DNA of 64,000 bases from Escherichia coli (GTDB taxonomy: Bacteria > Pseudomonadota > Gammaproteobacteria > Enterobacterales > Enterobacteriaceae), in NCBI RefSeq assembly GCF_003991155.1, contig NZ_CP031295.1; one strand, 5' to 3'. Below, piece after piece: positions 9,001 through 12,000 of the stretch. Position numbers: made by a program. Each line of letters opens with the position of its first letter. The stretch's first letter is position 1.

Positions 9001-12000
9001 GCAGCCGGGATTATTTGATGAAATCCAGCCCCGTAAAAACAGTGAAAAGTTAATGAAAACACTCGATGAACTGAACCAGTCGGGAAAAGGGAAAGTGTGG
9101 TTTGCGGGGCGAGGAACCGCCCCTGAATGGCAAATGAAACGGGAAATGTTGAGTCAGTGTTATACAACTAAATGGCGAGATATTCCCCTGGCCAGGCTGG
9201 GTTAGTTCAGTCATCTCCGAACATATTTTCAGCGTTTCTTCTGGTCTGGTCTTCACCGTCATTTCTCGACAGACTCTGCTCTGTAAGGGGAGTACTGCAA
9301 TCCACAGACGTATGGAGACCAGATTGTTTTTCCAGTAATTCAATCAATTTCTTTTCAACCGAAAAAGCAGGTAATGACTCCAACTTATTGATAGTGTTTT
9401 ATGTTCAGATAATGCCCGATGACTTTGTCATGCAGCTCCACCGATTTTGAGAACGACAGCGACTTCCGTCCCAGCCGTGCCAGGTGCTGCCTCAGATTCA
9501 GGTTATGCCGCTCAATTCGCTGCGTATATCGCTTGCTGATTACGTGCAGCTTTCCCTTCAGGCGGGATTCATACAGCGGCCAGCCATCCGTCATCCATAT
9601 CACCACGTCAAAGGGTGACAGCAGGCTCATAAGACGCCCCAGCGTCGCCATAGTGCGTTCACCGAATACGTGCGCAACAACCGTCTTCCGGAGACTGTCA
9701 TACGCGTAAAACAGCCAGCGCTGGCGCGATTTAGCCCCGACATAGCCCCACTGTTCGTCCATTTCCGCGCAGACGATGACGTCACTGCCCGGCTGTATGC
9801 GCGAGGTTACCGACTGCGGCCTGAGTTTTTTAAGTGACGTAAAATCGTGTTGAGGCCAACGCCCATAATGCGGGCAGTTACCCGGCATCCAACGCCATTC
9901 ATGGCCATATCAATGATTTTCTGGTGCGTACCGGGTTGAGAAGCGGTGTAAGTGAACTGCAGTTGCCATGTTTTACGGCAGTGAGAGCAGAGATAGCGCT
10001 GATGTCCGGCGGTGCTTTTGCCGTTACGCACCACCCCGTCAGTAGCTGAACAGGAGGGACAGCTGATAGAAACAGAAGCCACTGGAGCACCTCAAAAACA
10101 CCATCATACACTAAATCAGTAAGTTGGCAGCATCACCGATCCCTTCATTTAGTGACTGCCCCTGGGTTTTTCATGCTCTCCTGCGTCCTAGAGAACTTGC
10201 CAATAACCTACATTATTTTTGCTTTGCCATTACCAATCGTCCTGAACAAGTTCATTTTAAAGCCAAAGCGCTGCCCAACTTTTATCCTCAATACCACATC
10301 GTCAGCAGGAAATAACCTAATCCCTGTGTTGGGATCTTATAATCGCTAATGATAATTATTTACATTTTATAGCTTCTGCTATAAAACATAGTAGTTGCTA
10401 TGTTTATTCTAATTTTGCTCACTATAGGTACTAAATCATGCTCTCAATAAAAAAAGTAACCATGCTCTTGGGGTGCCTAGTCCTCACCTGCTCGATAGCA
10501 TTTCAGGCGAGTGCAGCTGAAAAATTCAAGGTCATTACAACTTTTACCATCATCGCAGATATGGCCAAAAACGTGGCTGGAGATGCTGCAGAAGTCTCAT
10601 CCATAACCAAGCCTGGTGCAGAAATTCATGAGTATCAGCCTACCCCTGGCGATATTAAACGTGCGCAGGGGGCACAACTGATTCTCGCCAATGGTATGAA
10701 TCTGGAATTGTGGTTCCAACGCTTTTACCAGCATCTCAATGGGGTTCCAGAAGTAATTGTCTCTTCGGGTGTGACGCCAGTAGGGATCACCGAAGGGCCC
10801 TATGAGGGCAAACCTAACCCCCATGCCTGGATGTCGCCAGATAATGCTCTGATTTACGTCGATAATATTCGTGATGCGTTTATAAAATACGATCCGGCAA
10901 ATGCACAAACCTACCAACGTAATGCCGATACTTATAAAGCCAAGATTACCCAAACCCTTGCCCCCCTGCGTAAGCAGATTGCGGAACTCCCTGAGAATCA
11001 GCGATGGATGGTCACCAGTGAAGGGGCTTTTTCTTATCTCGCACGCGATTTGGGGCTAAAAGAGCTTTATCTGTGGCCGATTAATGCCGATCAACAAGGA
11101 ACACCGCAGCAGGTACGTAAGGTTGTTGATATAGTTAAGAAAAATCATATCCCGGCAGTCTTTAGCGAGAGTACGATTTCCGATAAACCAGCGCGTCAGG
11201 TTGCGCGTGAAACCGGCGCGCACTACGGTGGTGTGCTCTATGTCGATTCCCTGAGCACAGAAAACGGCCCGGTACCTACGTATATCGACCTTCTGAAGGT
11301 TACTACCAGTACGCTGGTACAGGGAATTAAAGCCGGAAAAAGGGAGAAATAATGATGCAATCTGCAGGCATTGTCGTTAATGATGTTACTGTCACCTGGC
11401 GTAACGGGCACACAGCACTGCGCGATGCATCCTTCACAGTACCAGGCGGATCTATTGCCGCTCTGGTTGGGGTAAACGGTTCCGGAAAATCGACGTTGTT
11501 TAAAGCGATTATGGGATTTGTGCGTCTGACCAGCGGGAAGATATCTGTTCTGGGTATTCCCACACGACAGGCGCTACAGAAAAACCTGGTTGCCTACGTC
11601 CCTCAGTCAGAAGAGGTTGACTGGTCATTTCCTGTACTGGTGGAAGATGTGGTGATGATGGGCCGCTATGGGCATATGGGTATGTTGCGTATCGCCAAAA
11701 AGAGGGATCGTCAGATTGTCACCGATGCGCTGGAACGTGTCGATATGGTGGATTTTCGCCATCGACAAATCGGCGAGCTTTCCGGTGGACAAAAGAAACG
11801 CGTCTTTCTGGCGAGAGCGATTGCACAGCAGGGTGATGTGATCCTGCTGGATGAACCTTTTACCGGCGTTGATGTGAAAACCGAAGCGAAAATCATCAGC
11901 CTGTTGAGGGAGTTACGCGCGGAAGGCAAAACGATGCTTGTCTCAACGCACAATCTCGGATCCGTCACGACATTTTGCGATTATACGGTCATGGTCAAAG

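Follow-up and report, generated by a model that had tools for sequence, protein, structure and literature searches.

Manganese-loaded MntR represses mntH and sitABCD, and Fur does likewise, as summarised in a review citing Ikeda 2005 and Runyen-Janecky 2006 (PMC3852070). At both promoters cross-talk between the metals is reported, with iron acting through MntR and manganese through Fur (PMC3852070; PMC8264917). In a Salmonella fur mutant, sitA was 53.8-fold upregulated (PMC3212961), and sigma-S counteracts both repressors, Fur and MntR, at the sitA promoter of the same genus (PMC8970401). Here, we analysed the promoter of a plasmid-borne sitABCD operon of Escherichia coli, located in a stretch of 64,000 nucleotides of contig NZ_CP031295.1 (assembly GCF_003991155.1), which is called the window below. 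Our reading, to which we give a probability of about 0.8, is that the positions 10345-10405 are the operator-promoter of this operon, consisting of a Fur box and two MntR-type inverted repeats 1 bp apart, at which Fur and MntR would block the RNA polymerase. The control of sitABCD by Fur and MntR is already known for the orthologues; the conserved pairing of the MntR sites at sit refines it slightly. Since repression by both regulators is established for the orthologues, the same control is very likely here. The motifs, their statistics, conservation and spacing and the identity of the operon were established in the present analysis, and the repression of sitABCD in Salmonella and Shigella and the cooperativity of MntR in Bacillus subtilis are taken from the literature.

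Paired MntR sites have been described in two other settings. Cryo-electron microscopy of the B. subtilis MntR complexes showed dimers on 18 bp each (two 9-bp repeats), with a gap of 1 bp between adjacent sites; neighbouring dimers are in contact and bind cooperatively (PMC11275975). The E. coli mntS sites have the same spacing as the B. subtilis sites and overlap the promoter (PMC11275975). The mntS promoter of E. coli K-12 (positions 555-595 of the mntS-mntR intergenic region), read from the genome, has two ATAGC-N4-GCTAT boxes at a distance of exactly 19 bp. A TATAAT is made by the right arm of the first of them, and the annotated 5' end of rybA lies inside the downstream box. At mntP, two boxes were found 40 bp apart, and the mntS and mntP sites have variable flanks around the same ATAGC-N4-GCTAT core. 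At mntH, a Fur box is followed by AAACATAGC-AAAG-GCTATGTTT.

In the window, the positions 10340-10410 read taatcGCTAATGATAATTATTTACATTTTATAGCTTCTGCTATAAAACATAGTAGTTGCTATGTTTattc. The sequence-only reading of this stretch had named a Fur-like string followed about 20 bp later by a perfect MntR palindrome, and both strings are present there. The Fur box extends over 10345-10364 (plus strand), 74-93 bp upstream of the sitA ATG at 10438. Fur sites were scored against a 19-bp consensus with a threshold of 15/19 and, in addition, with the 7-1-7 model. The best register is the 19-mer GCTAATGATAATTATTTAC at 10345-10363, which matches the consensus GATAATGATAATCATTATC at 15 of 19 positions; the string that had been noted, CTAATGATAATTATTTACA, occupies 10346-10364 and is thus one base off. 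The 7-1-7 core TGATAATtATTtaCA at 10350-10364 matches TGATAATnATTATCA at 12 of 14 positions. A consensus search allowing up to 3 mismatches did not return the 10345-10363 site because it has 4. In the whole window, 19-mers with at least 15/19 matches were observed at three places only, compared to 0.29 per shuffle, and four sites of the 7-1-7 type are present versus 0.19 expected.

The palindrome noted previously, which we call box 2, is located at 10384-10405 (plus strand) with an 18-bp core at 10386-10403. Its full string is AAACATAGTAGTTGCTATGTTT, composed of AAACATAG-TAGTTG-CTATGTTT. The 8-nt arms are 100% complementary and enclose a 6-nt spacer, and AAACATAG-N6-CTATGTTT with at most 2 mismatches occurs once in the 64 kb against 0.02 expected. 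The palindrome is perfect as 8+8, but not in the canonical 9+N4+9 format, where the inner position is mismatched by a T at 10392 (a C in the chromosomal alleles) and the match to the ATAGC-N4-GCTAT core is 9/10. When compared with the K-12 mntH box AAACATAGC-N4-GCTATGTTT, box 2 is identical at 17 of 18 positions. Together with the Fur box, it spans 33-93 bp upstream of the sitA ATG.

The supposed gap between the Fur string and box 2 is 19 nt long (10365-10383), close to the proposed 20 bp, but it is not mere spacing, as it is part of an overlooked second palindrome. This box 1 at 10365-10386 (plus strand) reads TTTTATAGC-TTCT-GCTATAAAA and is a perfect 9+9 inverted repeat with an 18-bp core at 10367-10384. 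No other site in the window matches ATAGC-N4-GCTAT at 10/10. The proposed anatomy of one Fur box and one MntR box was thus incomplete: the Fur box abuts two MntR-type boxes, and the one that had been singled out is the slightly degraded member of the pair. The two 18-bp cores are separated by 1 bp and are 19 bp apart from centre to centre, the geometry of a paired operator. A box pair at this distance is unique within the 64 kb, and 0 of 200 shuffles gave one.

The comparison with the K-12 promoters shows which parts of this arrangement are shared. In mntH, a Fur box is likewise followed by an MntR box for the dual iron and manganese repression of a manganese importer, but there is only one full MntR box, with an isolated CATAGC just upstream and no second box found at the 19-bp offset. 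The mntS (rybA) promoter resembles sit in having two boxes 19 bp from centre to centre that overlap the promoter, with the right arm of the upstream box as the -10 element. It differs in that no Fur box was seen beside the pair by eye, a Fur scan not having been made there, and in that it controls a small protein and not a transporter. The B. subtilis mneP and mneS operators, bound in an (MntR2)4 complex, share the 18-bp sites with a 1-bp gap, the dimer-dimer contacts and the cooperativity, but they have four sites, serve in the activation of exporters and have another half-site sequence.

The sitABCD promoters of Salmonella SPI-1 and Shigella flexneri belong to the same operon and are likewise controlled by both Fur and MntR. 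Compared with them, the present promoter is a ColV-plasmid allele located 208 bp from the end of an IS1 element, and its changes were catalogued against the chromosomal alleles of E. coli. A Fur box immediately 5' of MntR-type palindromes was also read in the related sit promoters of Citrobacter and of the E. coli chromosome, and Citrobacter served as the nearest proxy for the experimentally studied Salmonella sit promoter. Full-text literature searches with the box sequence and for two MntR sites at sitA gave nothing relevant on a second sit MntR box; the primary papers on sit and MntR lay outside their coverage.

For the conservation of the boxes, relatives of SitA were collected by a scan of representative genomes, and the best 80 loci were used. 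These contained no E. coli, Shigella or Salmonella and consisted of 22 Enterobacterales loci (Enterobacter, Lelliottia, Pluralibacter, Shimwellia, Cedecea, Citrobacter, Klebsiella sp., Erwinia and Pantoea) and 58 loci of other taxa. Sites with a core of at least 8/10 were counted in 460 bp around each start. All 22 Enterobacterales loci had exactly two such sites, 19 bp apart, and no other offset occurred. The pair was observed in none of the 58 other loci among the best 80, and in none of 50 kb of adjoining coding sequence. When all 29 Enterobacterales sitA promoters were compared, each had the two boxes upstream of this manganese homeostasis gene at the invariant 19-bp offset, and the Fur box was kept as aaAtgataAttatTttcatTt. 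The consensus of the anchored alignment is aaAtgataAttatTttcatTt-nnnt-ATAGCntnTGCTATannnnATAGCannnGCTATnTtt.

These data bear on the simpler possibility that only box 2 at 10384-10405 is a functional MntR site beside the Fur box and that the palindrome at 10365-10386 is promoter sequence (spacer and -10) that is symmetric by chance. In its favour, Ikeda 2005 reportedly mentions putative MntR and Fur binding sites without stating their number, the right arm of box 1 does resemble a -10 element, and the left arm is degenerate in Citrobacter. However, the left arm ATAGC has no role in a promoter, yet it is conserved in most genera. Moreover, 29 of 29 promoters share one offset between the boxes, whereas the Fur box lies at distances from box 1 that vary by 1-3 bp, which suggests selection on the spacing of the pair. 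Box 1 is also the best core match in the whole window, and the same paired geometry is found at mntS and in the B. subtilis complexes. We therefore consider a single MntR site unlikely.

The two boxes differ in their outer flanks, which are TTTT...AAAA in box 1 compared to AAAC...GTTT in mntH and in the box 2 type. Accordingly, box 1 could be the target of a regulator other than MntR, one specific for an ATAGC palindrome with AT flanks. In Cedecea and Klebsiella sp., however, the flank types are reversed, with the AAACATAGC type upstream and the TTTTATAGC type downstream, so that they swap positions between genera. The flanks of the K-12 mntS and mntP sites also vary around the same core, and no further motif was detected. 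In the light of these observations, it is very improbable that box 1 has another regulator, and MntR would be the protein that occupies both boxes.

Outside the Enterobacterales, the sitA orthologues of Rhizobiales, Bartonella, Brucella and other taxa are without MntR boxes and have upstream palindromes of the GCAAATG-N5-CATTTGC type. The alpha-proteobacterial sitABCD/mntABCD operons encode an orthologous transporter with a SitA identity of 65-76%, but they differ by these palindromes of their own. They are consistent with the control by Mur, a manganese regulator of the Fur family, that is reported in the literature. Since the orthologues carry other palindromes, the regulator of the same transporter operon appears to have been swapped between lineages.

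Six chromosomal sit promoters of E. coli were also compared with the plasmid allele. They are 85-89% identical to it overall and retain the Fur box and both MntR-type boxes. Relative to them, the plasmid allele lacks 2 bp between the Fur box and box 1, has T for C at the inner position of box 2 and carries two substitutions in the Fur box. The deletion makes box 1 a perfect 9+9 palindrome.

The promoter elements were placed by analogy with mntS. The candidate -35 element TTTACA (10359-10364) would lie inside the 3' end of the Fur box, and the candidate extended -10 element TGcTATAAA (TGCTATAAA, 10377-10385) would be made by the right arm of box 1, where the alignment shows TGCTAT to be conserved at 80% or more. 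Transcription is predicted to start at about 10391-10393, inside box 2 (all plus strand). The spacer from TTTACA to TATAAA has 15 nt in the plasmid allele, 17 in the E. coli chromosomes and 18 in most other genera, a variation that may be tolerable if the extended -10 element carries the promoter. Judged by the general consensus of sigma-S -10 elements, the CTATA(n) arm of box 1 resembles such an element. Such a resemblance would agree with the sigma-S dependence reported for sitA of Salmonella (PMC8970401).

A promoter scanner that requires a spacer of 16-18 nt did not return the TTTACA/TATAAA pair. Its sole promoter, TTGGGA-16-GATAAT at 10329-10356, was disfavoured by us, as its spacing and -35 element are not conserved outside E. 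coli and because the chromosome of strain 24A16 has lost everything 5' of 10347 and hence would have lost this promoter. There, the sit homology starts at 10347, right at the Fur box, beside an IS110 remnant. A perfect TATAAT at 10338-10343 was also rejected, since it has no -35 partner and is absent from the chromosomal alleles. Apart from this, the 5' edge of the Fur box (about 10335-10347) is a recurrent point of rearrangement (accessions CP088388.1 and NZ_CM148325.1). Some IncF plasmids match 10139-10335 only, with a second IS1 annotated just past the end of the match and without the sit operon.

The position of the start also matters for the idea that the palindromes work at the RNA level, as hairpins of the sitA leader with a role in attenuation or stability, and not as protein-binding DNA. 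Two adjacent hairpins are indeed predicted to fold at -14.5 kcal/mol with a z-score of -2.0 versus shuffles, and a U-rich tract follows 3' of box 2. The stems, however, are weak and rich in AU, and the scan called no terminator at this site. The arms keep ATAGC and GCTAT across species without covariation, and the same sequence recurs at the unlinked MntR targets mntH, mntS and mntP. If transcription starts near 10392, box 1 would not be transcribed at all. An RNA function of the two repeats is therefore extremely improbable.

Returning to the operator reading, we propose that Fe(II)-Fur and Mn(II)-MntR, both supplied by the host, would bind to a composite of three repressor sites and block the RNA polymerase. 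Fur would cover the -35 region (TTTACA, 10359-10364), the first MntR dimer at box 1 would cover the extended -10 element TGCTATAAA at 10377-10385, and the second dimer at box 2 would cover the transcription start at about 10392. The fixed 1-bp gap would allow the two MntR dimers to touch and to bind cooperatively, leading to a steep shut-off as manganese rises. In the B. subtilis protein, the interface between the dimers includes the pair Asp27/Arg58, which is kept in E. coli MntR as D59/R90; overall, E. coli MntR retains just a part of this interface. Since only this pair of the interface is retained, cooperative binding of MntR in E. coli, and with it the cooperativity that we infer for the sit promoter, is plausible but not established.

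Several observations weigh against the operator reading in this form. The residues Lys20, Tyr22 and Glu55 of the B. subtilis MntR correspond to V52, E54 and I87 in E. coli MntR. Owing to the 2-bp deletion, the putative spacer between -35 and -10 has only 15 nt, an unfavourable length for sigma-70 unless the extended -10 element compensates, and the only promoter found by the scanner is another one. In Citrobacter, the box 1 core reaches only 8-9/10 owing to the degenerate left arm. Finally, the Fur box is weaker in the plasmid allele (15/19) than in the chromosomal E. coli sit alleles (17/19).

On the other side stand the near-identity of box 2 to the mntH box, the perfect core and 9+9 symmetry of box 1, and the position of the Fur box in a promoter where it is conserved in the orthologues. 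The dual repression by iron and manganese that had been proposed from the sequence is, in its core, very probably correct, as judged by motifs conserved in the Enterobacterales sitA promoters and by the literature on the orthologues; only the proposed anatomy had to be changed. A further interpretation would regard the sit operator as a Fur box fused to a paired MntR operator with 1-bp separation, in which a cooperative (MntR2)2 complex is the ancestral shut-off device for the enterobacterial manganese importers and mntS, and in which the ColV allele is tuned differently. For this wider interpretation, we see about even chances. If it is true, the ColV allele would be tuned unlike the chromosomal sit promoters: its box 1 is perfected, its box 2 and Fur box are weakened and its spacer is shorter by 2 bp.

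The genes downstream of the operator were identified as sitABCD, as had been assumed from the sequence. Four co-directional open reading frames with overlapping stop and start codons encode the components of a metal ABC transporter of the cluster A-I type, namely a substrate-binding protein, an ATPase and two permeases (all plus strand). The first, sitA (10438-11352), encodes the periplasmic manganese/iron-binding protein; it matches metal ABC substrate-binding families with E values of 1e-59 to 1e-62 and is annotated as SitA in identical plasmids. A weak Shine-Dalgarno-like TAGGT at 10425-10429 (plus strand) precedes its ATG by 9 nt, in a segment that is invariant among the E. coli alleles. 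The ATPase gene sitB (11352-12179) matches NF011630, the manganese/iron ABC ATP-binding protein, with 594 bits compared to the curated cutoff of 393. The permease genes sitC (12176-13033) and sitD (13030-13887) match metal ABC families, and identical DNA is annotated as sitA to sitD in RefSeq plasmids.

The window is from a ColV/IncFIB plasmid and carries a ColV-type virulence region. About 950 plasmids, for the most part conjugative IncF plasmids of E. coli, share the sitA promoter, taken as 302 bp reaching into sitA, with an identity of at least 99%. The gene order in one matching plasmid is omptin protease (ompT), SDR oxidoreductase (hlyF), mig-14, RepFIB, IS1, sitABCD, crcB, an MFS transporter and iucABC. 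The IS1 end is at 10137, and the similarity to the chromosomal sit loci begins only at about 10223. This IS1 copy extends over about 9370-10137, with the InsA/InsB open reading frames at 9385-10082 on the minus strand and the left boundary estimated from the length of the element. Downstream of sitD, an interval of about 1.2 kb (13888-15129) is without an annotated gene in the matching plasmid, followed by the fluoride-efflux gene crcB (15130-15510) between sitD and the aerobactin cluster. A homologue of mntR was not found within the window (best tblastn E value of 0.094), and MntR acting here would therefore have to be encoded by the host.

The strongest Fur box of the window is GATAATGAGAATCATTATT at 17157-17176 with 17/19 matches. 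It is located between the gene of the MFS transporter (15890-17083, minus strand) and iucA (start at about 17219) and is presumably the classical operator of the aerobactin promoter. The hlyF SDR oxidoreductase gene (about 2691-3800) contains two or three Fur-like sites within its coding region, at 2852-2876 and 3089-3103; they are GTGAACGATAATCATTATC with 16/19, overlapping minus-strand matches of 15/19, and TGATAATTATTATTC. In the coding regions of ompT and hlyF, there are also three near-matches to the MntR core (1892, 2985 and 3193). The sites in these two genes could be due to chance in AT-rich DNA or could be internal regulatory sites.

The sitABCD operon is a widely used marker and a fitness factor of the ColV-type plasmids in avian and extraintestinal pathogenic E. 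coli. The regulation described here is of the textbook kind, and a control of the promoter by Fur and MntR that depends on the host helps to interpret the expression of sitABCD in host niches poor in iron or manganese. For the construction of MntR-box mutants or of manganese reporters from sit, the region 10365-10405 should be treated as a two-site unit with fixed spacing, since cooperative binding to this unit would set the steepness with which the promoter responds to manganese.

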